Source: a phage
Assembly: GCA_025677605.1 (NCBI GenBank)
Contig: GCA_025677605.1_4110.1
Strand: one strand, 5' to 3'
Length of the DNA: 64,000 nt
Position 1 is the first letter of the stretch. Every line of letters begins with the position of its first letter. The notes beneath the pieces were generated by a model. It made no database searches. It saw only the letters and a list, made by a program, of their open reading frames with translations, and was not told where the DNA came from. This document shows, piece by piece, positions 1-64,000 of the stretch. Position numbers and translations under genes: made by a program.

Positions 1-34
1 ATTTTAACAGTACTTGCATGGTATAGAATCATCA

Positions 35-634
35 TCAATCCTCAGTGAGAATACAGTTCAGGTACGAACACAGTTCATCGTAGAAGAGTTTGTCCAGTAC
101 TGTAAGGTAACAGATACCGTTCTCTTTCATTGCAGCCTGTATCTTATCATAACCATTCACTGTGTCAAGGATTTCTTGATAAGATAATGCATCATCATTA
201 ACAGTACTACTCTGGAATGCCATTTCTTCTATGTTATCGATGGGTTCCTCATCGGAATTTAAGAAGCCTCCATTTTGATATATAATGTAATCTTCATTCC
301 ATGATTTAGTGAAACGGAGCAGGATAGGTTCATTAGCGAACATTTCGATATCACCACTTTCAATGTCGTATGAACAATATAGATTACAGTCTTCATCTAT
401 GAATTCTGCCATAAAGATTGCAGTTCGAGAACCATCATATACATAAACTCCAGTTTTGTTCATCTCAACATCAACTGCCATTCCATTTTTGAATTGCATT
501 CGAATCGTGATTTTAAGACTTTGGAGTATGTTATTTTCTGTATCTTTAACACTATACAATCCACGATATCGTAACCACAAATCTTTGATAGTACTTAAAG
601 AATTGATTAAGTCTTCATTGGGATCTTTTTTCAT
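35..634 (-). CDS. Family A paralog, unknown function
   Basis: 199-aa ORF; motif EEMAFQSSTV; 4-nt overlap with next gene. Confidence 0.7.
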   Translation of the reverse strand: MKKDPNEDLINSLSTIKDLWLRYRGLYSVKDTENNILQSLKITIRMQFKNGMAVDVEMNKTGVYVYDGSRTAIFMAEFIDEDCNLYCSYDIESGDIEMFANEPILLRFTKSWNEDYIIYQNGGFLNSDEEPIDNIEEMAFQSSTVNDDALSYQEILDTVNGYDKIQAAMKENGICYLTVLDKLFYDELCSYLNCILTED

Positions 635-1248
635 TCAGGTATTACCATATTGTTAATTAGTGTTTCTTTCTTGATGCAATCAGGCTTGATATAAATGAAC
701 ATCTTTCGTAGACTCTTCACTTTGTACCAATCATTCAGTACTGAAACCATAAGCCATAATTCTTCTGGTGTAGTGGTAACCTCTGTGATTACACCCATCT
801 GAAACAATGCACCCTTACAATCTTCAAGTGATTTCAGATCAGTCTTATACCCAGATTCAATATCCATTAGTGTTTTAGTTTTGGCATCATATGTGATGAA
901 CGATTCTTTTAGCGTTTTTCTTCCATCATTTAAGGTTAAAAACACTGGATTACCTGGACTAAACATGCACTCTTCAAATTCAGGAAATAAATCATGTGCT
1001 TCTTCATCATCGTCTTGGGTTAATTCCAGTACTAATTCATCTGTATAGATATTACAAATCCCAACGCTATATCTATTATACAGCGTTGTATATTGTGTGG
1101 GTTTTCCCTTTTTTGATAGCTTGAGTTCACTTTTCGGACCGTACTTGTCAAATAGTGTTTGTTTAGCTCTAATTAAATCTGGTGCAATGTTTAGTAAATC
1201 ACGTAGTGCTTTCTCGTACTTAACATACTCTGTTCTAATGTTAGTCAT
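631..1248 (-). CDS. Family A paralog (divergent), unknown function
   Basis: 205-aa ORF; degenerate motif KGALFQMGVI; coupled to neighbours. Confidence 0.6.
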   Translation of the reverse strand: MTNIRTEYVKYEKALRDLLNIAPDLIRAKQTLFDKYGPKSELKLSKKGKPTQYTTLYNRYSVGICNIYTDELVLELTQDDDEEAHDLFPEFEECMFSPGNPVFLTLNDGRKTLKESFITYDAKTKTLMDIESGYKTDLKSLEDCKGALFQMGVITEVTTTPEELWLMVSVLNDWYKVKSLRKMFIYIKPDCIKKETLINNMVIPE

Positions 1249-1780
1249 TGTAACCCTCTAAAAAATAATCTAATGTATCAAGTACATCACTATCAAAAAA
1301 ACAATTATTAACTACAACGATACCAGTATTATGTTCTAAATCATAACATTTATCCAGTACATTGATGCATTCATTGTACTCAATGATATCATGAAGAGTA
1401 CTGTGCTGAAAGTGTTCTTCTTCAGTGTACTCACAGTAATTAATATCAACACTGAACGATTGGTCGTTTCTTTTGCACGGATATAATTTAGTAGACTTTC
1501 GTCCAGACCATGTAATTGAATAACAACCAATCGAATTCTGTGGGATTTGTGTACCAGCATGAAGCATAATGTACAGAGCTTGCGAACTGTATGATTCAAC
1601 GTACAAACGGTTCTTATCTGCATTCATAACACAACCATCAATTGACATGCTTAGTGAATGTGACATTCTACTGGCTTTCCTGATGCCACGGCAGAAATTA
1701 ACATAACGCTGACGTAAGCTGTTAACTTTCTCAGGCCATAGCTCAAATTCTTTAGTATTTGATAATGTTGCAATGTGCAT
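1241..1780 (-). CDS. Family A paralog, unknown function
   Basis: 179-aa ORF; motif EEEHFQHSTL. Confidence 0.7.
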   Translation of the reverse strand: MHIATLSNTKEFELWPEKVNSLRQRYVNFCRGIRKASRMSHSLSMSIDGCVMNADKNRLYVESYSSQALYIMLHAGTQIPQNSIGCYSITWSGRKSTKLYPCKRNDQSFSVDINYCEYTEEEHFQHSTLHDIIEYNECINVLDKCYDLEHNTGIVVVNNCFFDSDVLDTLDYFLEGYND

Positions 1781-1782
1781 TA

Positions 1783-2385
1783 TTATTCCTTAATAACTGG
1801 TATAGCAGACCAAATTCGTTTCATTAGTTCATCTTCTAATACCACATCAGTACTGATCTTTTTGTAGTTCATTGATAATAGAAAATTACATTTCAGTTCT
1901 GATTTTAATTTTTCATAAAGATCAATGTTCATATACATTTCTTCATACGAAGGTAAAGAATGAATTAATGAATTTTGAAAATACCATTCTTCGCTGAAAT
2001 CTTTCACTTCAACACTTTTGATATTCTTAAATGAATCCTTATCAAAATAATATGAAACATCAGAACCATTATAATGTGAAAATGTTTTGAATAATTTTAT
2101 TTCATTTGTTCTACGAAGAATTCTTTCATAGGACAGAATTTTACTATCTTCTAATTCACCATGAAGTATCAGTGAAATATCAAAATCATTTGCAAGTCCA
2201 GCACCAAGGCGTTTGAATGCTAGTGTAATTCGTTGTTCACATGCCGAGATTTCAATCCTGTAAAAATCAGTTGCATACGTTAACATAGAGTATGGGAGAT
2301 GCAACTTTTCATTATTAGAAATACTTTTAGCTAACGTAATGACAGGGTTAAGCATTTTATTAAGAATAGGCATGTCAATGATCAT
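1783..2385 (-). CDS. Family A paralog, unknown function
   Basis: 200-aa ORF; motif EEWYFQNSLI. Confidence 0.7.
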   Translation of the reverse strand: MIIDMPILNKMLNPVITLAKSISNNEKLHLPYSMLTYATDFYRIEISACEQRITLAFKRLGAGLANDFDISLILHGELEDSKILSYERILRRTNEIKLFKTFSHYNGSDVSYYFDKDSFKNIKSVEVKDFSEEWYFQNSLIHSLPSYEEMYMNIDLYEKLKSELKCNFLLSMNYKKISTDVVLEDELMKRIWSAIPVIKE

Positions 2386-2386
2386 A

Positions 2387-2890
2387 TCATAATTCTCTTA
2401 GTTTTTTCAATACATAGTGTAGTACTTCATCTTCATTTACATACGATGTGTACATGAGAAATTTGCAACAAGTACTGTTAAGATAGCACATGTAGGTGAA
2501 CATTGCACTATAATTATTCACAGTACTGTTCTGAAATTCAACTTCATCAATTTCACCCAATGATACAGGTCGCATGTTGCAATCTACACCATCAATTTTT
2601 ACAACAGTAGTTCCTGGATGAAAGACTGCGGATTGTGAACCTATGGTGCTTGTATCGAAACTTGGTGCATCATAGATAGGACTATTGCTATCAAAGAGCA
2701 TGAAAATGTCATGGTCTAAACCTCTTTTCTGCTCAAATACAACTCGGATCATACCATCTTTTTGTATTTTAAGAATAATATCTGGAGCCAGTTCGAATCG
2801 ACCATATTGTTCATTGATATATTTTTCTTCAAGAATTTTATGCAATTCCACAAAGTCTTTAGTACTAAAGTGTTCCATCATATCCCTCAA
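2387..2890 (-). CDS. Family A paralog, unknown function
   Basis: 167-aa ORF; motif DEVEFQNSTV. Confidence 0.7.
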   Translation of the reverse strand: MRDMMEHFSTKDFVELHKILEEKYINEQYGRFELAPDIILKIQKDGMIRVVFEQKRGLDHDIFMLFDSNSPIYDAPSFDTSTIGSQSAVFHPGTTVVKIDGVDCNMRPVSLGEIDEVEFQNSTVNNYSAMFTYMCYLNSTCCKFLMYTSYVNEDEVLHYVLKKLREL

Positions 2891-3323
2891 CTAATTTTGT
2901 AATTTCTGCTCTTCGTACATCAATGTCATGAGCAAATGATATGGATGTGAAACCACGTTCCGCTGCAATGGCTCTCAACTGTAGGAGAAGTAATAACGGA
3001 TATATCACTTCATCAGAATACAAAGTACTTAATTGAAATATGGTTGCTTCATCAATCTCAGTACTTAAATCTATACTTTTAATATCAATGATTAACTGTG
3101 TATTGAAATACCATACATTGTCATTGACATAATCTATAGTAGTATTATCCATTACACTATAATCAATGTATCTTTCATTTGACCATAATGTCATCATATC
3201 ATCGCCGTCCGATGGATAGCTTACGTCAAACCATGAACCTGATTTTCGAGCTTTACCATTATCCAGTTCATTGAGGCAGTACTGGATTAACTTTTTCAGT
3301 AATTCGTAATCGTCTTTATTCAT
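2865..3323 (-). CDS. Family A paralog, unknown function
   Basis: 152-aa ORF; motif EATIFQLSTL. Confidence 0.7.
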   Translation of the reverse strand: MNKDDYELLKKLIQYCLNELDNGKARKSGSWFDVSYPSDGDDMMTLWSNERYIDYSVMDNTTIDYVNDNVWYFNTQLIIDIKSIDLSTEIDEATIFQLSTLYSDEVIYPLLLLLQLRAIAAERGFTSISFAHDIDVRRAEITKLVEGYDGTL

Positions 3324-3801
3324 TGCATTTCCAGAATATAGGATGTTTGTTAAGTGTTTGAAATATCATATCAAATGTAAATTTGTAATAAGAATAAACA
3401 CCGAAATTAATTGATATAGAATTTAAATTAGTTTCATGCACCATAGCACTATGTATCAGAACTGCATTTCTATGAAACTCATTATCAAGGCTCAATTCAG
3501 CCATAAAATCATCTAAAGTTCTGTCGCCGTTCTTTTTCTCGTATATGATTTCACCACTTGGTTCAATGAATACTGAACTTTCCCTTGATAGGATCATGAT
3601 TCGTTTCTCAATGACATTTTGAGATTCTTGACAGTTGAGTTCACAAAATGTCCATGAGCCACAGAACACAGCGATAATGTCGTTGTTTTTCACGAAGTTA
3701 AAGGGAATGCCATCAATCATTATCTGTACTTCGTGCACAAATTTATGAGAATACTTCTCAAGAATTTTACAAAATTTAATAACGTCTGCTGGATTTAACA
3801 T
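3316..3801 (-). CDS. Family A-like paralog (motif degenerate)
   Basis: 161-aa ORF; DDFMAELSLD at the motif position; same size and context. Confidence 0.55.
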   Translation of the reverse strand: MLNPADVIKFCKILEKYSHKFVHEVQIMIDGIPFNFVKNNDIIAVFCGSWTFCELNCQESQNVIEKRIMILSRESSVFIEPSGEIIYEKKNGDRTLDDFMAELSLDNEFHRNAVLIHSAMVHETNLNSISINFGVYSYYKFTFDMIFQTLNKHPIFWKCNE

Positions 3802-4355
3802 TGGATTGCCTTAATATGTTCAATCATTGCCTTGGAGTTAGTACTCATGTACTCAAATATATCATCATTCATGAGTTCTGTCAAGTTCAATTCAACCGTA
3901 CATCCATCTGGTAAGTTCTTCTGACAGAACGGAGCCAGTACTGCACCGTACAGTACATACGGATCATCAATAATTAAACTCTTCTGGAAGCAATCACAAT
4001 CCATATCTTCTTCATTATCGAAGTAAGTACTGATATCTATTGCAGTACTATCTTTACACATCAACTCTACATCACCTTTTTTAATTACTACACGCTTTGT
4101 CTTGGTATTGCGTAATCGGGTGTATTCTTTTATGTGTCGTTGTTGTGTATTGATTTCAATGATATCTTTGTGGTTGTACGTTATTGTGAAGTGCATATCA
4201 TTATTCAAATCACCACTCAGAAAAAAATTAAGATCTCTTAGTACAGTGTGATTGACTTTAATGTATTCACCTTCACGAATTAAACTCAGTGCAGCTACAC
4301 AATCTTCAATAAACTTCTCAAGGAACTTCCCTCTATAGTAAAGACTATATTTCAT
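3795..4355 (-). CDS. Family A paralog, unknown function
   Basis: 186-aa ORF; motif DCDCFQKSLI. Confidence 0.7.
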   Translation of the reverse strand: MKYSLYYRGKFLEKFIEDCVAALSLIREGEYIKVNHTVLRDLNFFLSGDLNNDMHFTITYNHKDIIEINTQQRHIKEYTRLRNTKTKRVVIKKGDVELMCKDSTAIDISTYFDNEEDMDCDCFQKSLIIDDPYVLYGAVLAPFCQKNLPDGCTVELNLTELMNDDIFEYMSTNSKAMIEHIKAIQC

Positions 4356-4930
4356 GAGAACTCCCCAGTATTGTTGATAAGACTGTCCAGACCTTCATGA
4401 ATTCTTTTAAATTCACTACGTTTAAAACGATGAACAATTTGTTGTAATGGACAGTATTTGTCTTTCTTATCCAGTTCATGATTGACGATTGTACTGAAAA
4501 GTAATAAATCCAATTCGTTAGTACTGTACATAGTACTTAACTGGAATAGTTCTTCTTCTATAGTACTACTGTTAAGATTAATCTTTGGAATTTTTTTACC
4601 TGAAATAACAATCCCTGCAAATTCACTTGTCCCTGGAACTTCAGCATTTCCTCCAATAATATAATCGTAGTTAATGTACCCATCGTTATTGGTTAAATCT
4701 TCTTTATTGTACTTAATTATCAGAAAGACACGTAGATCATTCATCGAAACTACTGCATGATCATACATACCTTCCTGGTCTTTAGTAATCGCCAAACGCA
4801 TATATGGGAGATTAAATGTCTTTTTAGTTTTACATAAATCACTATTAAGAATAGCATTCACTTTCAAAACCATCTTAGTGTAATATTGATACTCTTCGGA
4901 CATGTAATTATAAAGATTTGAGAAAGGCAT
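4352..4930 (-). CDS. Family A paralog, unknown function
   Basis: 192-aa ORF; motif EEELFQLSTM. Confidence 0.7.
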   Translation of the reverse strand: MPFSNLYNYMSEEYQYYTKMVLKVNAILNSDLCKTKKTFNLPYMRLAITKDQEGMYDHAVVSMNDLRVFLIIKYNKEDLTNNDGYINYDYIIGGNAEVPGTSEFAGIVISGKKIPKINLNSSTIEEELFQLSTMYSTNELDLLLFSTIVNHELDKKDKYCPLQQIVHRFKRSEFKRIHEGLDSLINNTGEFS

Positions 4931-5480
4931 TTAATTCCTCCAATAATTCTTCTTGTGTTTCAGTACTTTCATTGTATAAATTATTGAAAGCGGAACACTC
5001 CCCACTACCAAGTTGCATTGATAGTTGATATACAAAATCAGCTTTAGCTATCATATCATAACCAGGAAGCAACGACAACTGGAAAAGATATGCTTCTCGC
5101 TCTTCTGGATTTTGTAGCTCAGGTGCAATATGAAGATATTCTTCATCATCATAATAATCATCGTACAAATTTCTGACGATTAATTCGTTAGTTTCTTTGA
5201 GTTTATTCACAGTAAGACTACAATCAGAAACTGAACCCAAAAATTTACTCTCTCTGCCTGATGCCACATAAGAAGCATCAACTGACCATATATTTTTGGT
5301 TTTATGTTGAATGCAGTGTTGTATTTGGATATTAGCATAACGATACAAAGTACTGCAATCAAAAACTAATCGGTACATTGGATTGTTGAAGTAATGAAAA
5401 ATATTCTCTGTTCTTTTTTGTTCATCTAACTTATGAGTAAGTTCTTCTAGTACTTTAAAAATATCAATTAGTGTTTTCAT
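4908..5480 (-). CDS. Family A paralog, unknown function
   Basis: 190-aa ORF; motif EAYLFQLSLL. Confidence 0.7.
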   Translation of the reverse strand: MKTLIDIFKVLEELTHKLDEQKRTENIFHYFNNPMYRLVFDCSTLYRYANIQIQHCIQHKTKNIWSVDASYVASGRESKFLGSVSDCSLTVNKLKETNELIVRNLYDDYYDDEEYLHIAPELQNPEEREAYLFQLSLLPGYDMIAKADFVYQLSMQLGSGECSAFNNLYNESTETQEELLEELNAFLKSL

Positions 5481-6018
5481 GTTCTTTTCTCGTTTGTGCG
5501 TAGTTTTTCAAGTCCTTGAGTAATACTACTAATTGATCATCAGTGAGTAATGATGCTGTTGCACTATATGACATATAATAATTATTGAGATTGAAATCAA
5601 ATTTATAGTTACGTGCTAAAGCTTCAATCGTAAGTGCATCAGTGATTAATTTATCGTGAGTTACAGAACTCTGGAAATTTTGTTCTTCTAAATTCTCAGT
5701 ACTGAACAACGCAATAGGATCATATGATGGTTCTTTGTAATCCACTGCCTCTTTCATTCGAGGATTACGTGAAATAAAAGCCCAAGAACTGTCATATGAA
5801 AAATCAACAACACAGTCTTCCTCATCACCTTCATGTGGGTAAACGCACAGAATAGTTTTATTTTCTTCTGTGAACATCTGCTGCGTTGCAATACCCTCTC
5901 CTGTGTATTCAATTTCATAATCGAAACCGATTCTTAATTTACGTCCCTGTGAATTACACGTTTCAAGAAGTTTTCCCAGTTCGTTGTAAATTTGTAAGAT
6001 TAATAGGTAATTGTCCAT
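5464..6018 (-). CDS. Family A paralog, unknown function
   Basis: Track ORF 5464..6075 trimmed to MDNYLL (GAGGA SD). The removed extension overlaps the terminator/promoter at 6047..6085. Motif EEQNFQSSVT. Confidence 0.65.
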   Translation of the reverse strand: MDNYLLILQIYNELGKLLETCNSQGRKLRIGFDYEIEYTGEGIATQQMFTEENKTILCVYPHEGDEEDCVVDFSYDSSWAFISRNPRMKEAVDYKEPSYDPIALFSTENLEEQNFQSSVTHDKLITDALTIEALARNYKFDFNLNNYYMSYSATASLLTDDQLVVLLKDLKNYAQTRKEHENTN

Positions 6019-6046
6019 ATGATATCCTCGGTTAAATAATATTAAA

Positions 6047-6085
6047 ATAATAGCAAAGAAAAAAGCCAGAGTCAATACCCTGGCT
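6047..6085 (-). promoter_or_regulatory. Terminator hairpin with embedded sigma70-type promoter
   Basis: Stem AGCCAG 6064..6069 / CTGGCT 6080..6085, followed on the minus strand by a U-tract. -35 TTGACT 6070..6075 lies in the loop; 17-bp spacer; -10 TATTAT 6047..6052. Confidence 0.6.
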
Positions 6086-6091
6086 TTAAAA

Positions 6092-7504
6092 TTATTTCAC
6101 GTTAAAAATCGAAGTGGCTTTTTGTAAAGCATGTACTTCAGACTGTTGATTGTCTACCATCATCATTGTGTCCTTGACATGCTCCGCATTTTGCTGTACT
6201 GAACGGTCCATCATATTAACACTCTCGGTAACCTGAAGGATTGCAATGCTTTGTTGTTCAGCCATTATAGCTAAATCATCAATGAACTGCAAGAGAGAAT
6301 CAACATTTTTTACAATAGAATCAATATCACTTGCAGTTTCGTTGATTTGTTCTATTCCTTGGTTGTTGTTTTTTACAGAGTTATCAACGATTTCTTTAAT
6401 TTCTTTACTACATGCATCACATTTCATTGCTAAGTTACGAACTTCCTGTGCAACAACAGAGAATCCACGTCCATGTTCACCCGCTTTAGCAGCCTCAATA
6501 CTGGCATTTAAAGAAAGAATATTAGTCTGGAAAGCAATAGTTTCTATATTTTTGAGTATAGCAACTATAGCATTAGAATCTTCTTTAATTCTATCCATCT
6601 GCTCTTTGCAATTATTAATACTTTCAATTGCATTAGTACTGGATTCTTTTGTAGTTTTAACCATACTTTTTGCAGTATTGGAGTTATCAGATGTATTTGC
6701 AGATGTAGCACTTAATTCTTCCATAGCAGCAGCGATTTGAGTAAGTGCCTGTCCTTGTGTTTCAGTTCTGAAAGCTAAATCATTACTTTTACTTTCGAGA
6801 TGATAGGAGTTGCTTTTCATTGACTGAACTGTAATTTGTACTTGTTCAATTGCCTCACGCATAGCTGATATTGTTTTACTAAAAGTCTGTGCAAATTCTG
6901 AGTTGAAATGATTATTTTGTATTTCTAAAGTAATATTGCCGTCTTCAGAATTCACCGAATGGGCAATTCGTTGAATTTCATCTGCTTCATTTGCATCTTT
7001 CTCCATAATATACGCAACGTACATCAGAACTATTGCCTGTACTACTACATATATTGCGTGCTCTATAATGTGCCATAACGAAATATGGTGAAAAGAAAAC
7101 ACGAATAATATTGGAATTCCAGCACCCTGTAACAATCCAAATAATAAATGATGTATAGCAATCAGTACTGAACCTGCTAATACACAACGCCAGTCACGCC
7201 ATACAATCAATAAACTTAAAAAGACAAAAACTGTAAAGTGCCATTCCACCATCCCTAAGCCAAGATGTATTAGTAACGCACTCCAGCACATCACATTTAT
7301 ACTTAACAACGTTCGAGTGAACGCATTACTTTCAACAAATAGTAAAGGAGTTAGCATTACTAATAATAAAACTGCACCGATTAGTGCAATAATAAAACTA
7401 CCATGAACAACACCGGAAACTAAAGTAACAGCAAATAAAGCCCCTATACAACATAGTACTAAATTATCGGCTTTTTTGCGTATATTTTCTAAATTACTTT
7501 TCAA
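6092..7504 (-). CDS. Methyl-accepting chemotaxis protein homolog (multi-TM N-terminus plus MCP signalling domain)
   Basis: 470 aa. About 5 hydrophobic helices in the first 170 aa. Contains the canonical MCP hairpin-tip signature [37 protein letters not shown]. Alignable by eye to E. coli Tsr. Confidence 0.9.
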
Positions 7505-8049
7505 CGTACTTCTCCATAATTTAAATTATCATCAATATATTTTTTTAATAACAAATGCATTTTCTCTAGTTCCTCTTGGCTTTTGGTAAGTAACTTGTCC
7601 ATAATTGTAATTTCATAATGATCTTCTAATAACCTAAGTAATTTATAACCCATTTCTAGCTTATTATAAGTTAATTGATCATATGACATAGCAGCCATGA
7701 ACATTTGTTCTTTGAAAGTGTTTGAATCAATTTTAGCTACAGCTAACTTCTCGTCATCTTCATAAGAATGTTTTACCAGTATCTTAGTGTAGCGTGATAC
7801 ATTATATAGACGAATTTCACTATCTCCGCGTAGAATTTCCATCTTGTATTCTTGTCTACGTTGTGTTGCATTAATGATCTTTACGACATAACCTAAACCA
7901 CTAATGAACAATGTAATATTAGAATATACTGATGGAGATTCTTTTGGGTTGATATTTAATTCACCTAACTCAAAATTAACAGTCTTATTATCAGGACTGT
8001 TTTTAAAAATATAAATCATGCATTCAATAATATTTACAATGCTATCCAT
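7501..8049 (-). CDS. Family A-like paralog (motif degenerate)
   Basis: 182-aa ORF; [11 protein letters not shown] at the motif position; ATGA overlap with the MCP gene. Confidence 0.6.
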
Positions 8050-8080
8050 AAAATACGCTCTCTTTTAAATAGGTTACAAT

Positions 8081-8109
8081 ATTCTAACACTCTACATTAC
8101 TAATGTCAA
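8081..8109 (-). promoter_or_regulatory. sigma70-type promoter
   Basis: -35 TTGACA 8104..8109; 17 bp; -10 TAGAAT 8081..8086; reads into 7501..8049 and the MCP gene. Confidence 0.6.
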
Positions 8110-8117
8110 CCTATAAA

Positions 8118-8141
8118 CGAAAAAAGACCCATCAGGGTCTT
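8118..8141 (-). terminator. Rho-independent terminator
   Basis: AAGACCC-ATCA-GGGTCTT hairpin covering the stop codon of 8132..8683, then UUUUU on the minus strand. Confidence 0.6.
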
Positions 8142-8683
8142 TTAAATGCTCGTAAGTCTCTCAGAATGTTTGGTAGAGTGCCTTGTTCCATTACAGAATT
8201 CAGTACATTAAGATCCATTGTAAGATAGAAACCATCAGGGATGTAATCACGCACTAACTTATCCAACTCAATGATATCCATTGTTAACTGATCATATAGA
8301 GTACTGTACTGGAAAAGCACCCCATCGTCAACATTTAAATCTATTAAGTTATCACCGTGATTGCATTGGCAAAAGTTATTAGCAAGATTTTTATGTTTAA
8401 TGCTGCTTATGTACACATATGGATAACGTGTGAGTACACGATTCTGTGCCTCCGAACAACCATCTGCAATTTCTTCATCTGATAACTCAGGGTGCAAAAG
8501 AAACAATGAACTATCACTAATGTACAAAGTACCTATAGAACCGTTTTTATTATTACTGTGTCGAATATAACATGAACCAAGATTTGATATAGGTTTTATA
8601 TCTTGTAGTACAATAGGAAAAAAGTTAATAATAACTTTAGATAGATCTTTTAGTACTGGGTTTATTGTTAATGGTAGACTCAT
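8132..8683 (-). CDS. Family A paralog, unknown function
   Basis: 183-aa ORF; motif DGVLFQYSTL. Confidence 0.7.
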   Translation of the reverse strand: MSLPLTINPVLKDLSKVIINFFPIVLQDIKPISNLGSCYIRHSNNKNGSIGTLYISDSSLFLLHPELSDEEIADGCSEAQNRVLTRYPYVYISSIKHKNLANNFCQCNHGDNLIDLNVDDGVLFQYSTLYDQLTMDIIELDKLVRDYIPDGFYLTMDLNVLNSVMEQGTLPNILRDLRAFKRP

Positions 8684-9312
8684 TTCATTATCCTTGAACC
8701 GCCTATATAGGTATCGTTAAAATAATTATCATTTTCAAACGCCATGTTATTCAAATCAGCAAGGTCATCGAAGTAACCGCCTTCAATACATATTTCTTTG
8801 AATACGTCACTGTACTTGAATAAATTTACTAAACTAAAGGTAATGTCTGCTCTTTGAACTTTAGTACATTTAAGGTGCTCATGTAGATATGGGAAAACAA
8901 TAGTATATAATAAATCATTCGGTTCATATATTAAACTATTTTGAAAGAATGATTCTTCTGAATAATCCATAACATTGAGGTTCAATCTAAGTACCTCATT
9001 ACTATCCAGTACTAATGTTTTATCTGACAAATCGAAGTTCAAGCAGTGCGTATAAAATGGTCCCAAATTACCAACTCTATTTTTATCTAAACCACTAGGA
9101 CTGAAATCAAGCCATACTTCATTCAACTCACTATCATCTGATTCTATGTACTCAAGAACATTGTTATGAAAACGCATGTCATAACATTCAAGGAACTTAT
9201 CATCCTTCAGACGTGGTAATATGTCCGTTAATGCTCGTGCATACGCAATGCAGTGCTTATACTCTAGGCGATGAAAAACGTACTTTGAAATTGGTTTTCT
9301 TTTTGTACTCAT
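8680..9312 (-). CDS. Family A paralog, unknown function
   Basis: 210-aa ORF; motif EESFFQNSLI. Confidence 0.7.
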   Translation of the reverse strand: MSTKRKPISKYVFHRLEYKHCIAYARALTDILPRLKDDKFLECYDMRFHNNVLEYIESDDSELNEVWLDFSPSGLDKNRVGNLGPFYTHCLNFDLSDKTLVLDSNEVLRLNLNVMDYSEESFFQNSLIYEPNDLLYTIVFPYLHEHLKCTKVQRADITFSLVNLFKYSDVFKEICIEGGYFDDLADLNNMAFENDNYFNDTYIGGSRIMK

Positions 9313-9316
9313 TCAA

Positions 9317-53731: not shown

Positions 53732-53776
53732 TATAATGCTTGCACTACGGAGCTTCCCCTAGCTATATGTGTTTAA

Positions 53777-57673: not shown

Positions 57674-57709
57674 TTGATTAAATATAGTATAATGAATAAA
57701 GGAGGAATT
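57674..57709 (+). promoter_or_regulatory. Conserved cassette leader (TATAAT box without -35, plus SD)
   Basis: TTGATTAAATATAGTATAATGAATAAAGGAGGAATT; TATAAT 57688..57693; repeated 5 times in front of the beta-propeller genes. Confidence 0.5.
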
Positions 57710-58606
57710 ATGTTACCTTTTGTTAGAATGTTTAAGTACGGGAATGTAGGTCCATTACCTGGCCCAAATGGTGGAGTACGAACACCATTTACTACAACAC
57801 CCGTACCTTCAGCACGAAATAACTTTGGTTATACGTATGATGCGGAAAGTAATATTGCTTATATATTTGGTGGTATACAGAATGCGGTGCAGACGGATAA
57901 TCAGTTATGGAGTTTTAATTTAACTACAAGAACGTGGTCACAATTAGCCAATGCACCTGTATCTACATTTGGTAGTGCGTTATGTGCTTATCAGGGAAAA
58001 ATATATTTGTTTGGTGGTTCAGGTAATAGTAGTAATAATTTTTATGTATATAATATAAGTACAAATACATGGATTCTGAACACTAACAGTATTGGGAAGC
58101 CTAGTCAACTGGCGTATAGTAAGATGATTACTGCTGGGGATAAGATATATTTGTGGGGTTCGCCTACTAATAATTCGTTATACAGTTATACTCCAAGTAC
58201 TAATACATGGTCATCATTAGGTACAAGTGATGGAACAAATAACAATGGAGGTGGTGATATGTGTACGGATGGTACTTACATATATATTACTGGTCAAGGT
58301 ACTAGTACTGCACAAAAATATCATATACAAAGTGCGGTGTGGTCTAACATAGCACCAGTTGGTGGTAATAACCCTAGTAAAATATGTTACAGTACATATG
58401 ATAAAAATATATATGCAGTGTCGTATGGTGCATTAAATTTATTGAGATACGATGCAGAAGAAGACATATGGATTCCCTTAGCGGTTAATACTACTTTGAG
58501 TAGTAGTACTGGTGCGTTATTTGGTTCTAAGAATAGTGCTGAGATATTTTATGTACTTGGTTTTGACAATGGCACTCGTGTTAATACGCAGTATGTTTTT
58601 AAATAA
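57710..58606 (+). CDS. Kelch-repeat beta-propeller protein with conserved MLPFVRM N-terminus
   Basis: Track ORF trimmed to MLPFVRMFKYGN (AAAGGAGG SD). 5-6 Kelch-like units, e.g. IYIFGG..LWSFNLTTRTW, KIYLFGG..YVYNISTNTW, KIYLWG..YSYTPSTNTW. Confidence 0.75.
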   Translation: MLPFVRMFKYGNVGPLPGPNGGVRTPFTTTPVPSARNNFGYTYDAESNIAYIFGGIQNAVQTDNQLWSFNLTTRTWSQLANAPVSTFGSALCAYQGKIYLFGGSGNSSNNFYVYNISTNTWILNTNSIGKPSQLAYSKMITAGDKIYLWGSPTNNSLYSYTPSTNTWSSLGTSDGTNNNGGGDMCTDGTYIYITGQGTSTAQKYHIQSAVWSNIAPVGGNNPSKICYSTYDKNIYAVSYGALNLLRYDAEEDIWIPLAVNTTLSSSTGALFGSKNSAEIFYVLGFDNGTRVNTQYVFK

Positions 58607-58618
58607 TTTGGAGGAATT

Positions 58619-59761
58619 ATGTTACCTTTTGTTAGAATGTTAGAGTACGGGAATATTGCACCAGAACCAAAACCTCTATTTAAAAATAGATTACAAGCAA
58701 ATTATAATACTCGTTTTTATTTGCATGTTAATGGTGACTTGTACTGGTATGGTTCATCTTCATTTGGACAAGGTGGTAATGGTTCATTACAATCATCCAC
58801 CGTATGGACCCGTGTGAATAATAATATTGAACGTTACTGGGGTGGTGTTCTTGGTTCCATTGCCATTAAGAATGATGGAACTATTTGGTTCACAGGTGCT
58901 AGTATAGTAATGCCACAAATCGGAACAAATACAAATGGGGTTTGGATTGATGTAACCCAGTACTTCACTGATTTTGGTGTCAGTGCTGATGATATTGATG
59001 GTATTGCTGTTGGGCAGAATTTGCGTGTATTTTTAAAAAATGGAAAATGGTTCTACTGTGGTGCTGGCGAAGGTGGTGTATTTGGTAACGCGTCAACAGC
59101 TAATGTCACATCGTTCAGATACAGCACTATAGAAAATGTTAAAAGTTATGGCTGTTCTTTGCTCAGTACTGGGTTAGTACTTGATGATGGCTCCTATTGG
59201 TATGCAGGAAATACTGTTGCTCCTGGTAGTACAAAAACATCAAATATATTAAGTTTTACAAAAGACAATACGATCACCAATGCTATACAAGCTGTAAATA
59301 CATACCGTACTTCATATATATTTCTTAATGATGGTTCAGTGAAGGTTGCTTCACCAAATGCATATGGTCAAGCTGGTGTAGGTACAGTATCAGCAGTACC
59401 AATGAGTACATTAATTCCCAATTTATCATTCCAAGGTGAAATAGAGTTGGTGGGTGGTTTATCCAACAACGAAGGGAATGGATGTGTTGTTAAAAATAAT
59501 AATAAGTTATATACTTGTGGTCGAAATACCTATGGTGCATGTGGTGTTAATCAAACATCCGAAAATATACTAACTTTCACCGAAATGGTTCTTGATGCAT
59601 TAGAAGGAAGACGAATTTCAGGCTTCGTAATTGATAATTTCTATTCAATGATAATTGATGAAAATAACAATTTGTATATGAGTGGTTTACCTGAACTTGG
59701 AAATGTTCCAGCCGTTAGAGTACCAACCAGAGTTCCTGATTCACTTCTACCGTGGAAATAA
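58619..59761 (+). CDS. RCC1-like repeat beta-propeller protein with MLPFVRM N-terminus
   Basis: 380 aa; GGAGG SD. Repeats such as LYWYGSSSFGQGGNG, WFYCGAGEGGVFGN, SPNAYGQAGVG, LYTCGRNTYGACGVN. Confidence 0.7.
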   Translation: MLPFVRMLEYGNIAPEPKPLFKNRLQANYNTRFYLHVNGDLYWYGSSSFGQGGNGSLQSSTVWTRVNNNIERYWGGVLGSIAIKNDGTIWFTGASIVMPQIGTNTNGVWIDVTQYFTDFGVSADDIDGIAVGQNLRVFLKNGKWFYCGAGEGGVFGNASTANVTSFRYSTIENVKSYGCSLLSTGLVLDDGSYWYAGNTVAPGSTKTSNILSFTKDNTITNAIQAVNTYRTSYIFLNDGSVKVASPNAYGQAGVGTVSAVPMSTLIPNLSFQGEIELVGGLSNNEGNGCVVKNNNKLYTCGRNTYGACGVNQTSENILTFTEMVLDALEGRRISGFVIDNFYSMIIDENNNLYMSGLPELGNVPAVRVPTRVPDSLLPWK

Positions 59762-59768
59762 TATAATA

Positions 59769-59797
59769 GCCAGTACTCTGTACTGGCTTTTCTTATT
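59769..59797 (+). terminator. Rho-independent terminator
   Basis: GCCAGTAC-TCT-GTACTGGC followed by TTTTCTTATTT. Confidence 0.75.
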
Positions 59798-59833
59798 TGT
59801 ATTAAATATAGTATAATGAATAAAGGAGGAATT
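59798..59833 (+). promoter_or_regulatory. Conserved cassette leader
   Basis: TATAAT 59812..59817; AAAGGAGG SD. Confidence 0.5.
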
Positions 59834-60943
59834 ATGTTACCTTTTGTTAGAATGTTAGAGTATGGGAATATTGTACCCGGTCCTAAAAATATAATTAAAG
59901 TTGGTGCTTCTACACAAGGTCAATTCTTATTGACTGATTCACATGATTTATATTACATAGGTAGAAATCAAGGTGGTGAATCTGGAAATGGTAATAACAA
60001 CACGGTATCTTCATGGATATTAGTAAGTTCAGATGTTTCTAATTTTTTCGTGGGTGGTCGTACACTTGTTATTATTAAAAATGATAATACGATATGGACA
60101 TCGGGTGAAACGTACTGGTTCTCATCTTCTACAACTACTTCTTACAGTACTATATTAGTTGAAAGGACTAATTGGTTTACCAATGCTATACCAGTGAGTG
60201 AAATTGCTAATATTGTATGTACAAATGGTTTAATATTTGTACTTAGCACTAGTTCAGTACTCTATGGTGCAGGAGATAATGGATATCGTGGTTCTTTAGG
60301 TATTGGCTCATCATCGATTTACACATTAACTCAATGTGCTACTAACGTGCGTAAAGTAATGACTAATGCAAATGATAGTATGTATATTACATTAGATAAT
60401 AAGCTATATAGTTCTGGATGGAATAGCAGTGGGCAGCATGGTACAGGGGACCAAACACAAATTAACACTTGGGGATTACGTAGTTCTGGTGTAATCGATG
60501 CAGCGATTGGTGGTAATGCATTTAATTACTATAATGGTACATCATATTTCGTATGTGGTCAAACTCCAAACTTTCTTAGTTCAGGTACGACTACATTCCG
60601 TGCAGTTCCTGTAAGTACTTTGCCTAATAGTTCTCCGTTGTTTATGACGAATTCACCTGCATTAAATACTGCTACACAAATGGTAATTACTAGTACATAT
60701 CAGAAGGGTGTTGGGGCGAACCGTGGTTTGGGATTAAACAATTCTCAAACTGGTGCTATATATAGTGCTACAAATTTACAATTACCCGTTGAAGTTAGTG
60801 AGATTAGGGATGTTCTTTTTAGTGATGGTTTGACTTCAATATTAACCAAAGATGGAGATGTATATAGTACTGGAACGTATTACGCCATTCCTGGTGCAAG
60901 CGAGGATGTTGCAGTCTTTACTAAAATTGATTTACCAAAATAA
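59834..60943 (+). CDS. RCC1-like repeat beta-propeller protein with MLPFVRM N-terminus
   Basis: Track ORF trimmed to MLPFVRMLEYGN. Repeats LYYIGRNQGGESGNG, LYGAGDNGYRGSLGIG, LYSSGWNSSGQHGTGD. Confidence 0.7.
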   Translation: MLPFVRMLEYGNIVPGPKNIIKVGASTQGQFLLTDSHDLYYIGRNQGGESGNGNNNTVSSWILVSSDVSNFFVGGRTLVIIKNDNTIWTSGETYWFSSSTTTSYSTILVERTNWFTNAIPVSEIANIVCTNGLIFVLSTSSVLYGAGDNGYRGSLGIGSSSIYTLTQCATNVRKVMTNANDSMYITLDNKLYSSGWNSSGQHGTGDQTQINTWGLRSSGVIDAAIGGNAFNYYNGTSYFVCGQTPNFLSSGTTTFRAVPVSTLPNSSPLFMTNSPALNTATQMVITSTYQKGVGANRGLGLNNSQTGAIYSATNLQLPVEVSEIRDVLFSDGLTSILTKDGDVYSTGTYYAIPGASEDVAVFTKIDLPK

Positions 60944-60949
60944 CATAAT

Positions 60950-60977
60950 GCCAGTACTTGATACTGGCTTTCTTATT
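60950..60977 (+). terminator. Rho-independent terminator
   Basis: GCCAGTA-CTTGA-TACTGGC followed by TTTCTTATTT. Confidence 0.75.
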
Positions 60978-61014
60978 TGTATTAAATATAGTATAATGAA
61001 TAAAGGAGGAATAT
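60978..61014 (+). promoter_or_regulatory. Conserved cassette leader
   Basis: TATAAT 60992..60997; AAAGGAGG SD. Confidence 0.5.
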
Positions 61015-62194
61015 ATGTTACCTTTTGTTAGATTGTTTGATTATGGGAATGTTGCCCCTATTAAAGATACTGTTGTTAAAATTAATAGTGATGAAAATTC
61101 AATAAGCGTATTATACAGTGACGGGTCATTATATATGCGTGGACGGAAACCAATCAGCAAAAATGGGAGTTACTGGTTCATCTTTTTTAGATAGATGGGT
61201 TTTATGTCCTTATAGTGTTGATGATTTCTGGAGTTCTTTATATTGTACTATAATTAGAACAAAACAAGGGGAATTGTACTATAGTGGAACTAACTCAGTT
61301 TTTGGTATATCATCTTCTGTTTCAACATGGACTCGTTGTGAATCATATTTTGGATCTATCTCGGCGAGTTCTATAAAAGATATAAAAATAACATCAACAA
61401 CCAGTACTAACAATTCTATGCTAATACTCACAAGTGACGGTCAGTTATATGGTATAGGCATGAATGGTGCAAGTGAATTGGGTACAGCAACTGCACCAAT
61501 TACATCTCCACTCTTAATTGACACTAGTGTAACTGCAATTGCATCTAGCGAAATGAGCAGAAACTTTCACTATATAAAAGATGGTATATATTATCGTTGT
61601 GGTGAGAATACTTTTTATCAATTAGGGACAGGTGATAATAATCCAATTACGACTTTTACTGCATTGAATCTTGCAAGTTCTCAAGTAATTGCAGTACAAG
61701 CTACACGATGGGTAACACGTTTGATTGTTCAAAGTAGTACATCTGCTTTGTCTTTAATGGCGGCTGGTTGGAACACACAGTTGACTATAGGTGGTTCTGA
61801 AAATACTGGTATAATAAGGTCATCATTTACTACAAATCCCTATACCGATATAACAGCAAATTCATTCGATAAACTTTCACCAGTATCCTATGTTAATGCA
61901 ATAAAATCCAGTACTAACATTATTAATACGAATGGTAAGGGATATAATTCTAATGGTGCTGGTTTAGGCCGCAACGCATTCTCTGGGAATTATGGTTCAA
62001 TATTACCAATAGAATTCTTTGATGATAGTGTTGACTTATCACATGTTGAGTGGTTTGGTACGATTGGTAATGGTTCAGTATCGGTAGTTAGTATAGGTGA
62101 GGATTTATACTGGACTGGAAACCCTGGGTATTTTACTGAACAAGGTGAGACTGGATATATATATAAATTCAAAAAGTGCATTCCTTTTAGATAA
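61015..62194 (+). pseudogene. Frameshifted RCC1-like beta-propeller paralog
   Basis: MLPFVRLFDYGN...LYSDGSLYMRG is in frame 1 (stop at 61192..61194). The homologous continuation GNQSAKMGVTG... is in the +1 frame (track ORF 61118..62194). One extra nucleotide near 61144. Confidence 0.6.
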
Positions 62195-62202
62195 TCACAA
62201 TA

Positions 62203-62229
62203 CCAGTACTTGATACTGGCTTTTCTTTT
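62203..62229 (+). terminator. Rho-independent terminator
   Basis: CCAGTA-CTTGA-TACTGG followed by CTTTTCTTTTTT. Confidence 0.7.
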
Positions 62230-62265
62230 TTGATTAAATATAGTATAATGAATAAAGGAGGAAAT
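62230..62265 (+). promoter_or_regulatory. Conserved cassette leader
   Basis: TATAAT 62244..62249; AAAGGAGG SD. Confidence 0.5.
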
Positions 62266-63456
62266 ATGTTACCTTTTGTTAGAATGTTTGATTACGGGAA
62301 TATAACACCAGTCCCTATTCAAATTAAGAAAATATCACCAACTGATTTAGATGTTGTCGTTCTTTATACGGATGGTCAACTATACGCACGTGGAAATAAT
62401 AGTTTTGGGAAGTTTGGTAGAGGAAATAGTAATGCAGTAAAGTCATGGACCTTAATTAGAGAAAATGTTAAAGATTTCTGGGTGTCACAAGGAACTTTGT
62501 TAGTACAAGATAATGACTTAAATTATTTTTATTGTGGATACGGTGATCATGTTGGTTTACCAACTAGTACTACAACATTTTTAAGTTATAACCAATATAT
62601 TGAAAATTTATACACACAAAGTTCAAGTACTTCAATTAAACAGATGTATGCAGGCACTACGTGGTTTACTTTCTTAATGGATAATAATACAATATGGAGT
62701 ACTGGTTGGAGTGGGGCTAGACAATTCGCTGATGGTACTGGAAAAACTCAACAAATAACAGATGGATCATTTGTAAAAGCTGTCACGCCTAATGTTGATA
62801 TTGCACAAATACAGTCAACAAATAACTGTGTAATGTTTTTTGATACACAAAATAATTTATATATTGGTGGTGGTACGTCAGGTATAAGTACCAGTACCAC
62901 ATGGACACCATTTAATGAATATACTTTATATAAACCAAGTACAACATACACAAAAACGTTACAATACACTGGATGCTCAAGTGGTGCAGTCAGTGCTTTG
63001 GTTGAGAATCCAAGTACTGGTGCACGTCAGTTTCTAGTTGGTGGTTTAGCGAGTAATGGTGCATGGGGTAACAATACCACAACCAGTTCGGCACTTGCTG
63101 TATTAGGGAGCAATAGTACGACATTACCAACTGGAACTTTGTATTCAATTCATACAGGATACCCAACACAATCTAGTATACTAGTTACGAGTACTGGTGT
63201 ATATGCAACTGGTTTAAATGCGAGTAGTTATGCTGGTTCGTTGGGTGTTGGTTCTAATGTTACTATTGGTAGATTTACTATATGTCCAATGCCAGCAGAA
63301 ATATCATATTCTATGTATGATAAAATAAAAATATATCGCGGTTCGTATCGTACTTTTCTAACTGCTGATATGAAAAATATATATTCAACCGGAACGTATG
63401 ATGATGGTGGTCCTAGTACAAATAGATATGTTCTGGATACACCTAGACAATTGTAA
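62266..63456 (+). CDS. RCC1-like repeat beta-propeller protein with MLPFVRM N-terminus
   Basis: Track ORF trimmed to MLPFVRMFDYGN. Repeats LYARGNNSFGKFGRGN, IWSTGWSGARQFADGTG, GGLASNGAWGN. Confidence 0.65.
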   Translation: MLPFVRMFDYGNITPVPIQIKKISPTDLDVVVLYTDGQLYARGNNSFGKFGRGNSNAVKSWTLIRENVKDFWVSQGTLLVQDNDLNYFYCGYGDHVGLPTSTTTFLSYNQYIENLYTQSSSTSIKQMYAGTTWFTFLMDNNTIWSTGWSGARQFADGTGKTQQITDGSFVKAVTPNVDIAQIQSTNNCVMFFDTQNNLYIGGGTSGISTSTTWTPFNEYTLYKPSTTYTKTLQYTGCSSGAVSALVENPSTGARQFLVGGLASNGAWGNNTTTSSALAVLGSNSTTLPTGTLYSIHTGYPTQSSILVTSTGVYATGLNASSYAGSLGVGSNVTIGRFTICPMPAEISYSMYDKIKIYRGSYRTFLTADMKNIYSTGTYDDGGPSTNRYVLDTPRQL

Positions 63457-63463
63457 TAATTTC

Positions 63464-63491
63464 GCCAGTACTTGATACTGGCTTTTCTTTT
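63464..63491 (+). terminator. Rho-independent terminator
   Basis: GCCAGTA-CTTGA-TACTGGC followed by TTTTCTTTTTT. Confidence 0.75.
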
Positions 63492-63527
63492 TTGATTAAA
63501 TATAGTATAATGAATAAAGGAGGAAAT
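63492..63527 (+). promoter_or_regulatory. Conserved cassette leader
   Basis: TATAAT 63506..63511; AAAGGAGG SD. Confidence 0.5.
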
Positions 63528-64000
63528 ATGTTACCTTTTGTAAGAATGTTGGATTATGGAAATAAAGTTTTACCATATATTCCCAATTTTGTTAAATTAG
63601 TTACACCATCGTGTGGTTATTCATATACATGTACAATGATGCTTGATAAAAATGGTTCAATATGGGCTATAGGTTTTCAGAATGGTGGAATTTTTGGTTT
63701 AGGTCATACTAATCCAGTAACTGAATGGACAAAAATATATAGCAATGTTAAAGATTTTTGGTGCAGTACAATGAACGCTTTTTGTCTAATACGCACAAAT
63801 GATGATAGATTCTTTTATAGTGGTTTAGATAAATGGCTGGGTAATAATACAACCAATAATATAACAACATTCACAGAATGTACAAGCTATTTTACACAAT
63901 TTGGAATTTCAAGAATTAAAGATATATACGTGGGTTATGATTATGCTTTGATTTTAGGTACAGATAATAGTTTATATTTGTTAGGTGATAATACTGGTTA
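63528..64000 (+). CDS. Beta-propeller paralog with MLPFVRM N-terminus (partial; runs off the window)
   Basis: Hand translation MLPFVRMLDYGNKVLPYIPNF...IWAIGFQNGGIFGLGHTN... is open to the window end; not in the track because no stop is reached. Confidence 0.65.
   Translation, partial: MLPFVRMLDYGNKVLPYIPNFVKLVTPSCGYSYTCTMMLDKNGSIWAIGFQNGGIFGLGHTNPVTEWTKIYSNVKDFWCSTMNAFCLIRTNDDRFFYSGLDKWLGNNTTNNITTFTECTSYFTQFGISRIKDIYVGYDYALILGTDNSLYLLGDNTG

Follow-up and report, generated by a model that had tools for sequence, protein, structure and literature searches.

The window analyzed here, a 64,000-bp stretch of phage DNA (GCA_025677605.1, contig GCA_025677605.1_4110.1), is crowded with copies of a single 6-bp palindrome, AGTACT. 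BLAST searches against phage records identify the window as part of an Asteriusvirus, a RaK2-like jumbo myovirus of E. coli with genomes of ~350 kb. The nearest record is phage A4 (94-97% identity) and phage 121Q is ~86-88% identical over the aligned parts. The 149 predicted genes are split 137 to 12 between the minus and the plus strand, coding DNA accounts for 84% of the window, and neither Rfam families nor tRNAs are found in it. From left to right the window holds a minus-strand gene array, two blocks devoid of AGTACT that flank a short AGTACT-rich island, the probable equivalent of a terminal repeat with many small early genes, a stretch free of open reading frames (ORFs) and a set of plus-strand genes (Table 1). 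The comparisons below use the whole genome of 121Q and stretches of 21-50 kb from RaK2, GAP32, CBB, pEa_SNUABM_44, PA5oct, XacN1, T4 and E. coli K-12.

AGTACT is the top-ranked hexamer of the window. An exact count gives 269 copies in 64,000 bp (4.2/kb), compared with 19.1 ± 4.2 (maximum 28) in dinucleotide-preserving shuffles and 20.0 expected under an order-1 Markov model, a 13.5-fold excess. The next of all 4,096 hexamers are GTACTG and CAGTAC, its own extensions, and no other 6-bp palindrome exceeds 1.6 times expectation. The over-representation that an initial annotation had estimated by eye is thus real and stronger than claimed, and its local counts hold up well, with 15 sites in 1-3,300, 24 in 33,000-36,000 and 15 in the ORF-free region at 52.2-53.6 kb. 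What does not hold is uniformity over the whole window, as two blocks contain no AGTACT at all (Table 1). The sites are denser in noncoding than in coding DNA (9.3/kb vs 3.3/kb). Order-3 and order-4 Markov models, which had been proposed as a possible refutation, give expectations of 111 and 230, but this test is invalid: it is circular because AGTA, GTAC, TACT, AGTAC and GTACT are common only through the abundance of AGTACT. Among the 64 six-base palindromes, 25 that are G+C-rich are missing from the window, and CGATCG, ACCGGT and CACGTG occur once each. The phage therefore practises very strong restriction-site avoidance, though not for AGTACT.

The excess in coding DNA is not a by-product of codon or dipeptide usage. 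Protein-aware nulls provide the fair test here. Against 176 coding copies observed, shuffling of synonymous codons gene by gene yields 61 ± 7, sampling of codons from pooled usage yields 45 and codon permutation yields 25. All codon phases are used (85, 37 and 54 copies), as first reported. Ser-Thr is written AGT-ACT in 85 of its 158 occurrences against 14% expected from codon usage, which bears out a preference initially noticed in one protein family; in the gene array at the left of the window many of the sites encode a conserved Ser-Thr following an FQx motif. We therefore reject codon-pair usage of a few dipeptides as the cause of the enrichment, and causality runs the opposite way. QY (1.48×), ST (1.45×) and VL (1.39×), the three readings of AGTACT, lead the over-represented dipeptides of the 121Q proteome, and the reversed dipeptides YQ, TS and LV stay at 0.97-1.08. 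The DNA word has therefore reshaped the proteins, not the reverse. The 121Q tRNAs (75,464-75,555; 77,896-77,969) include a tRNA-Ser with anticodon ACT for the AGT codon and a tRNA-Thr with anticodon TGT for the ACA codon; this complement may be adapted to the codons AGT and ACA found in AGTACT and in its variant AGTACA, described below.

AGTACT sites change 2-10 times more slowly than flanking or synonymous positions. Over all positions, divergence inside and outside the sites is 1.9% and 4.5% relative to A4 and 6.2% and 14.0% relative to 121Q. At synonymous third positions, 4 of 246 inside the sites differ from A4 compared with 643 of 12,011 outside (p = 0.006), and the corresponding figures for 121Q are 11 of 167 and 1,162 of 6,703 (p = 1e-4). 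Noncoding divergence is 0.6% inside and 5.9% outside relative to A4 (p = 2e-9) and 5.2% and 13.2% relative to 121Q (p = 4e-8). Whole sites are retained in 93% of cases in A4 (76% expected) and in 80% in 121Q (40% expected). Over longer distances the positions shift: 18 orthologous core genes of 121Q and RaK2 (18.7 kb, ~71% identity) contain 34 sites each, only 8 of them at common positions. AGTACT is therefore maintained by purifying selection, with density conserved while positions turn over.

The AGTACT excess is a trait of RaK2-like phages infecting Enterobacterales. The complete 121Q genome carries 903 copies against 100 expected (9-fold); AGTACT is again its top hexamer, and every 5-kb bin is enriched. 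Strong excess is also observed in RaK2 of Klebsiella (Alcyoneusvirus; 119 vs 12 expected in 50 kb), GAP32 of Cronobacter (Mimasvirus; 253 vs 14 in 50 kb), CBB of Pectobacterium (Mimasvirus; 178 vs 9 in 30 kb) and pEa_SNUABM_44 of Erwinia (Eneladusvirus; 34 vs 6 in 21 kb of the late region). The four enriched genera, Asteriusvirus, Alcyoneusvirus, Mimasvirus and Eneladusvirus, are no longer alignable at the DNA level. No excess is seen in PA5oct of Pseudomonas (4 vs 13 in 50 kb), XacN1 of Xanthomonas (0 vs 4 in 25 kb), T4 of E. coli (12 vs 9 in 50 kb) or the E. coli K-12 chromosome (3 vs 5 in 50 kb, ~0.06/kb). The trait is therefore not one of coliphages generally or of the host, and a general coliphage or host-composition effect can be rejected, T4 and E. 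coli DNA both being without excess. A restriction-type 6-bp palindrome is thus enriched 9-19 fold across lytic jumbo phage genomes.

Within 121Q, AGTACT density is highest in the terminal-repeat equivalent (6.7/kb), followed by paralog families (3.4/kb), metabolism genes (2.7/kb), tail genes (1.8/kb), replication genes (1.5/kb) and head genes (1.2/kb); mobile HNH and GIY-YIG genes have normal density. Repeats or paralogs alone do not account for the excess, as single-copy core genes still carry 1.8/kb at positions that differ between genera. In the 273-kb core of 121Q the sites are spaced slightly more evenly than random (coefficient of variation 0.85-0.92 vs 0.99 ± 0.055), and no gap is longer than 2.1 kb, at or below the Poisson 5th percentile. 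The initial annotation had argued that enrichment of a palindrome in a phage suggests a function. Purifying selection, the spread over four genera, a density kept despite turnover and the proteome shift toward QY, ST and VL all speak for this.

The highest AGTACT density of the window coincides with the likely terminal repeat. The record of phage G17 contains an exact 20,668-bp direct terminal repeat (positions 1-20,668 and 350,150-370,817), and from homology to it we infer that the window holds the whole repeat in collapsed form, with approximate boundaries at ~32,286 and ~53,510 and the first 150 bp at the left unaligned. G+C content rises across this region, where AGTACT density jumps. G17 itself has 6.4 sites/kb within the repeat compared with 0.8/kb directly outside its left edge, and the annotated repeat of CBB likewise has 6.4/kb. 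Each early gene of the repeat is preceded by its own σ70-type promoter and a stem-loop in the 5' untranslated region (5'-UTR). Presumably these cassettes resemble the promoter-early-stem-loop (PeSL) modules of T4-type phages.

In these early promoters AGTACT occupies fixed positions. It is present in 31 of the 35 σ70-type early promoters of the repeat, in one or both of two registers. In 17 promoters the palindrome ends on the first T of the -35 hexamer (AAAAGTACTTGCA), covering -40 to -35 (offset -5), and in 14 it lies one base upstream of the -10 hexamer (AGTACTGTATAAT), covering -19 to -14 (offset -7). This confirms the stereotyped placement reported earlier, with AAGTACTTGCA at -35 and AGTACTGTATAAT at -10. 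Promoters that carry both have their sites 20-22 bp apart, and the register centers are separated by 21 bp, on the same helical face. The same two registers are found in GAP32 and CBB. At the 16 late-type TATAAATA promoters of 121Q, association with AGTACT is at background only. Given established promoter geometry, a protein bound at either register would clash with the σ70 holoenzyme. AGTACT also lies in the stems of plus-strand terminators, as noted initially, in three copies of the same hairpin (Table 1).

Table 1. Features of the 64,000-bp window and their AGTACT, AGTACA and Chi content.
Feature	Position	Strand	Description
Gene array	1-19,445	-	Tightly packed genes of 110-210 amino acids, mostly paralogous families; 71 AGTACT (3.65/kb)
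Chemotaxis-type gene	6,092-7,504	-	Product with a methyl-accepting chemotaxis signalling domain (PF00015, E = 5e-37)
First AGTACT-free block	19,446-26,115	-	Zero AGTACT; 43 AGTACA on the coding (minus) strand, 0 in opposite orientation
AGTACT island	26,116-27,926		14 palindromes (about 7/kb) in 1.8 kb between the two blocks; conserved in 121Q (159.6-161.8 kb)
Second AGTACT-free block	27,927-32,416	+	Zero AGTACT; 9 AGTACA on the plus strand vs 2 TGTACT, weak opposite polarity
Terminal-repeat equivalent	32,286-53,510	-	Placed by homology to G17, boundaries approximate; >50 small early genes; AGTACT peak ~6.3/kb
Early-gene cassettes	33,000-51,300 (e.g. 35,838-35,924)	-	Promoter, 5'-UTR stem-loop (GGGGAGAATAGTTCTCCCC and variants), Shine-Dalgarno sequence, small ORF
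Chi sites	33,648; 33,871; 35,773; 37,691; 40,040; 41,033; 41,301; 46,212	-	CCACCAGC on the plus strand
Example early promoter	48,192-48,246	-	TAAAA-AGTACT-TGCAATTAGTTTTT-AGTACT-GTATAATGG; sites at 48,239-48,244 (-40 to -35) and 48,219-48,224 (-19 to -14)
HNH homing endonuclease gene	51,535-52,044	-	169 amino acids, I-HmuI-like
ORF-free stretch	52,045-53,776		1.7 kb; 17 AGTACT, mostly of TC-AGTACT-GA type; right repeat boundary (~53,510) inside
β-propeller genes	57,692-63,456	+	Five tandem paralogs of 300-400 amino acids, RCC1-like or Kelch; terminator after each
Terminator hairpins	60,950-63,482 (60,950; 62,202; 63,464)	+	Three copies of GCCAGTACTTGATACTGGC, AGTACT in stem; downstream of RCC1/Kelch-like β-propeller genes

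The flanks of AGTACT extend the palindrome symmetrically. The preferred extended form is CAGTACTG (C-AGTACT-G), with 58 copies in the window. C is found at -1 in 47% and G at +1 in 44% of sites, and G before and C after the palindrome are avoided, each being present in 8%. At its fullest the preferred sequence is the 12-bp palindrome TTCAGTACTGAA, and the best form can be written (TT)C-AGTACT-G(AA). In 121Q every NNC triplet in front of AGT is favored 3-7 fold, for example GCC 7.4× and TTC 4.6×, and TTC is the leading flank triplet in coding and noncoding DNA alike. The preference at ±1 to ±4 remains symmetric when coding sites are oriented by transcription and therefore speaks for a two-fold-symmetric reading of duplex DNA and against an RNA signal.

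Two blocks next to the terminal repeat are free of AGTACT, and the first of them carries a one-strand variant instead. At the neighboring density of 3.65/kb, finding no site has a probability of 3e-11 for the first and 7e-8 for the second block. Their orthologs in 121Q, which retain 72-89% identity, are the sole AGTACT gaps longer than 2.2 kb in that genome. In the first block, the coding strand carries 52 copies of the pentamer AGTAC and the other strand none. Its AGTACA copies have unique contexts and fall in all three codon phases (12, 18 and 11), and the most strand-asymmetric 5-mer of the block is coding-strand GTACA (56 vs 8.5 expected). In the 121Q ortholog (161.8-169.4 kb) AGTACA is likewise confined to the coding strand, at 41:0, and AGTAC stands at 41:1. 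These counts show that the palindrome is actively excluded from the first block and its half-version positively selected on one strand. Judged by a local model, the scarcity of the pentamer on the opposite strand reaches only weak significance (0 vs 3.0 in the window, 1 vs 2.4 in 121Q). The second block abuts the probable left boundary of the repeat and is site-free in 121Q (155.5-159.6 kb) and A4 as well. Elsewhere in the 121Q genome no polarity of the AGTACA type is seen, and non-palindromic variants have no strand bias. Pfam and PHROGs scans assign no known function to the proteins of the first block. Recent import of the blocks can be rejected, since they are site-free in relatives of 72-89% identity and mobile HNH genes have normal density. 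The palindrome-free blocks, the AGTACA strand variant, the density peak at the terminal repeat and the taxonomic breadth all go beyond the initial annotation.

The edges of the terminal-repeat equivalent show additional signals. The ORF-free stretch contains tandem repeats of GGCTAGATGG/TTCTAGATGG type and three copies of a ~35-nt element (GAATTTTGGGCG...CACCCnGTGGG...), and it has no match in Rfam. GC skew switches sharply from -0.17 to +0.18 at ~53.0 kb, and genes remain on the minus strand until 57.6 kb. This stretch is a candidate for an origin of replication, a packaging site or a signal for injection. The window contains eight E. coli Chi sites (GCTGGTGG), every one of them on the minus strand (0.27 expected, p ~6e-10), and all fall within the left two-thirds of the terminal-repeat equivalent. 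A co-oriented Chi cluster is also present in the G17 repeat and at 136-154 kb of 121Q. In this orientation the Chi sites would stop RecBCD entering from the presumed left genome end. Two other gene groups of the window deserve mention: the chemotaxis-type gene is an unusual cargo for a lytic phage, and the β-propeller paralogs have counterparts in ~15 RCC1-like or Kelch genes of 121Q, labelled 'DNA condensation' proteins by name similarity only.

Taken as a whole, we favor, at a probability of about 40%, a reading in which AGTACT is the distributed recognition word of a sequence-specific, two-fold-symmetric reader of duplex DNA that marks phage DNA and gates early promoters. Among the options listed in the initial annotation, a binding site for a DNA-binding protein or a self-marking target fits best, with flanks symmetric to ~12 bp and a fixed register in early promoters. 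The reader would most likely be a dimeric DNA-binding protein that RaK2-like phages of Enterobacterales encode or bring with them. Bound at -40 to -35 or -19 to -14, it would occlude host RNA polymerase and thereby gate early transcription or turn it off, in the manner of the genome-coating proteins TF1 (SPO1) and p6 (phi29). The numerous intragenic sites would mark phage DNA as 'self', for compaction, protection or roadblocking, and genes that need to escape the reader would make up the two palindrome-free blocks next to the repeat.

Several observations weigh against this proposal. The AGTACA bias of 43:0 in the first block is unexplained by a symmetric dimer and hints at strand-specific reading. 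Six base pairs are short for a specific operator. Neighboring sites show no helical phasing, and only the promoter pairs 20-22 bp apart stand out. The promoter registers could be inherited from an ancestral promoter cassette instead of being functional, and roadblocks within late genes would seem costly. The search for a reader protein adds to these points. A Pfam scan, which does not extend to distant folds, finds no conserved DNA-binding domain among the 149 predicted proteins of the window, and by Pfam none of the annotated nucleases, regulators and sigma factor of 121Q emerges as a reader, the nucleases being of homing-endonuclease types. The sole DNA-binding hit is the I-HmuI-like HNH homing endonuclease at the edge of the terminal repeat, with a NUMOD4 domain (E = 5e-7), a match to PDB 1U3E (E = 2e-4) and an apparent C-terminal helix-turn-helix. 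Its gene is missing in 121Q as well as in the A4 and G17 segments that cover the locus and is therefore a strain-specific mobile gene.

Established systems resemble a genome-wide AGTACT reader in part. TF1 and p6 bind along the viral genome, their preferred sites overlap strong early promoters and they repress early transcription; the SPO1 early promoters lie in the terminal redundancy. Similarly, AGTACT overlaps 31 of 35 early core promoters in a terminal repeat and decorates the rest of the genome. In contrast, TF1 selects hydroxymethyluracil-DNA and p6 bendability, not a defined 6-bp palindrome, and no HU-like or p6-like protein is identified among the proteins scanned. To our knowledge, no comparable reshaping of codons or dipeptides has been reported for SPO1 or phi29. 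The stoperators of cluster A mycobacteriophages, bound by L5 gp71, are 13-bp asymmetric sites, ~30 per genome and mostly intergenic, oriented to transcription and read by the immunity repressor of a temperate phage. Common to both systems are many copies of one site (269 in the window) that overlap promoters and lie inside transcription units, and the first block holds 43 copies in a single orientation. The present word differs in being a 6-bp palindrome with ~900 mostly intragenic copies in a lytic jumbo phage, polar in only one 7-kb block, and no cognate repressor gene is found by Pfam, distant folds aside, among the window proteins and the annotated 121Q regulators. Chi sites, DNA uptake sequences (DUS/USS) and FtsK-orienting polar sequences (KOPS) are likewise over-represented words that occur in all coding phases and in terminator stems, keep their density over turnover and act as de facto markers of 'own' DNA. 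However, these words lack palindromic symmetry, are strand-polar and have known readers (RecBCD, the uptake machinery, FtsK), whereas AGTACT is palindromic, viral and locked to promoter positions.

A broader version of the two-fold-symmetric reader can be offered only tentatively. AGTACT would form a 'genome word' system in which a dedicated reader tells phage from host DNA by the density of the word, ~40 times higher in the phage, through symmetric duplex or strand-specific (AGTAC) reading, and which couples control of early promoters at the terminal repeats with genome-wide protection or with licensing of replication or recombination. Such a system would in effect be a virus-encoded counterpart of Chi/DUS-type self-recognition that has reshaped codon use, dipeptide content and possibly the tRNA set. 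An AGTACT bias is mentioned neither in the genome papers of RaK2 and CBB nor in anything found by full-text literature searches, and we know of no other case that combines an enriched restriction-type palindrome, promoter registers, a proteome imprint and a one-strand block.

Among the alternatives, the best-surviving one, which we consider rather unlikely, is a replication or recombination signal read on one strand. Polar AGTAC would act on single-stranded DNA as a primase-helicase priming site or as a Chi-like helicase-nuclease signal, AGTACT would be the two-directional form for forks or nucleases arriving from either side in T4-type recombination-dependent replication, and the first block would be a region always crossed in one direction. 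This would suit the AGTAC bias of that block (52:0, and 41:1 in 121Q) and the weaker opposite polarity of the second block across the island, as well as a density that is conserved though positions turn over. An even core spacing with a longest gap of ~2 kb, roughly the length of an Okazaki fragment, is in keeping with it, as are the density peak at genome ends, where exonucleases enter, the eight co-oriented Chi sites in the same repeat and the sign switch of GC skew at the right repeat boundary, independent of gene orientation. Known primase sites, however, are trinucleotides and known Chi sites non-palindromic 5-8-mers, and neither kind is known to be a 6-bp palindrome. A strand-read signal also leaves unexplained the two fixed early-promoter registers, the symmetric 12-bp flank preference and the exclusion from the first block of palindromes, which carry the needed strand too; no genome-wide polarity exists beyond that locus, and even there avoidance on the other strand is only weakly significant.

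AGTACT is the recognition site of ScaI/Eco255I. Two further possibilities are each improbable. In the first, a phage endonuclease or nickase would make a Type II-like cut or nick at AGTACT that seeds recombination-dependent replication or processes concatemers; the blocks would be spared double-strand cuts, their half-sites being nicked on one strand only. The identity with the ScaI/Eco255I palindrome, the 11 kb by the terminal-repeat boundary that are conservedly palindrome-free with half-sites on one strand, and the T4-type recombination proteins encoded by RaK2-like phages (UvsX, UvsY, gp46/47-like proteins and endonuclease VII) are consistent with such an enzyme. No restriction-like enzyme is recognizable among the annotated nucleases, cleavage at ~900 sites of its own genome would be dangerous for the phage, flanking bases usually matter little to restriction enzymes, whereas the flank preferences here are extended and symmetric, and the promoter registers remain outside its reach. 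In the second, AGTACT would be the target of a sequence-specific modification, harmless to the phage in the face of ScaI-type enzymes and used as an epigenetic label of self. Sites of this kind are normally depleted in phages, and a phage that drops 25 other palindromes yet keeps AGTACT enriched 13-fold, with ~900 copies per genome, must tolerate it. RaK2 DNA is reported to be refractory to many restriction enzymes and, by bisulfite data, CpG-methylated (PMC3622015). The 121Q methyltransferases, however, are of C5-cytosine (gp91, PF00145) and Dam (gp417, PF05869) types, neither a CpG nor a Dam target lies within AGTACT (enzyme specificity is not readable from sequence), and no cognate N4-cytosine methyltransferase or ScaI-like nuclease is evident among the annotated enzymes. 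Protection alone would also leave the enrichment, the promoter registers and the polar block unexplained, and methyltransferases usually impose no 12-bp flank preference. The earlier idea of a modification that renders the site harmless thus appears unsupported.

A host factor is less probable still. An Enterobacterales-specific protein, SlmA or another, would bind AGTACT and be used or titrated by the phage, in agreement with the restriction of the trait to phages of Escherichia, Klebsiella, Cronobacter, Pectobacterium and Erwinia and its absence from the Pseudomonas and Xanthomonas relatives. T4 of the same host and the same G+C content is not enriched, and we know of no E. coli regulator other than SlmA with an AGTACT site. 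The SlmA-binding sequence (SBS; GTGAGTACTCAC) is palindromic, has the same six central bases and is spread over the host genome (PMC3020112). SlmA requires G, T and a purine at SBS positions 1-3 and A, G and a pyrimidine at positions 4-6 (PMC3020112). All 269 window sites carry positions 4-6 by definition, but the required outer bases are the most avoided flanks of the phage: GT.AGTACT.AC occurs at 0 of 269 sites in the window and 2 of 903 in 121Q, SBS position 3 holds C at 47% of window sites and a purine at 28% (46% background), GAGTACTC is found 0 times against about 8 expected in the window and 3 times against 26 in 121Q, and GTG is the most depleted flank triplet (0.14× expectation). The resemblance is therefore one of the core only, the flank statistics contradict the published specificity, and the SlmA link suggested in the initial annotation fails. 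LexA is rejected as well: TACTG/CAGTA half-matches are many, but the CTGT-N8-ACAG box is absent from the window and occurs once in 121Q.

Two last explanations carry very little probability. A lineage-specific repair or gene-conversion drive that turns near-matches into a functionless AGTACT would mimic both enrichment and apparent conservation in all codon phases, but eight of the nine one-mismatch classes are enriched 1.2-2.2× (only AGGACT/AGTCCT is low, at 0.59×), and a genome-wide drive can neither bypass two conserved blocks (11 kb) entirely yet bring mobile HNH genes to normal density nor produce fixed promoter registers and a one-strand variant; Dcm/Vsr-type very-short-patch repair, which creates CCWGG, is rejected since the one-mismatch precursors are not depleted. 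An RNA-level signal, with AGUAC(U) cut or bound by a ribonuclease or RNA-binding protein of the phage that sets when mRNAs decay, early mRNAs being richest and first-block mRNAs carrying the AGUACA form only, would fit the strictly coding-strand variant of that block and the density order of early, then middle, then late genes, but it needs no palindrome and is at odds with flanks that stay symmetric under transcription orientation, with sites in untranscribed promoter spacers and upstream of or overlapping the first -35 base in fixed register, and with the lack of coding-strand bias of non-palindromic variants outside the block.

Phages are expected to purge short palindromes, and it is surprising to find one as the commonest 6-mer of a 350-kb genome, kept in four genera; its persistence therefore implies a strong benefit and a reader. 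In practice, AGTACT is a cheap metagenome diagnostic for the RaK2-like clade and a design rule for recoding or engineering these genomes. For phage therapy it calls for caution, as hosts with ScaI/Eco255I-type systems should restrict these phages heavily unless AGTACT is protected. The reader, if found, could explain how non-nucleus-forming jumbo phages distinguish self from host DNA without modification, by what means the >50 strong early promoters of the terminal repeats are turned off, and why a palindrome-free, one-strand block lies by the repeat boundary, be it for injection, repeat duplication, replication direction or another process.

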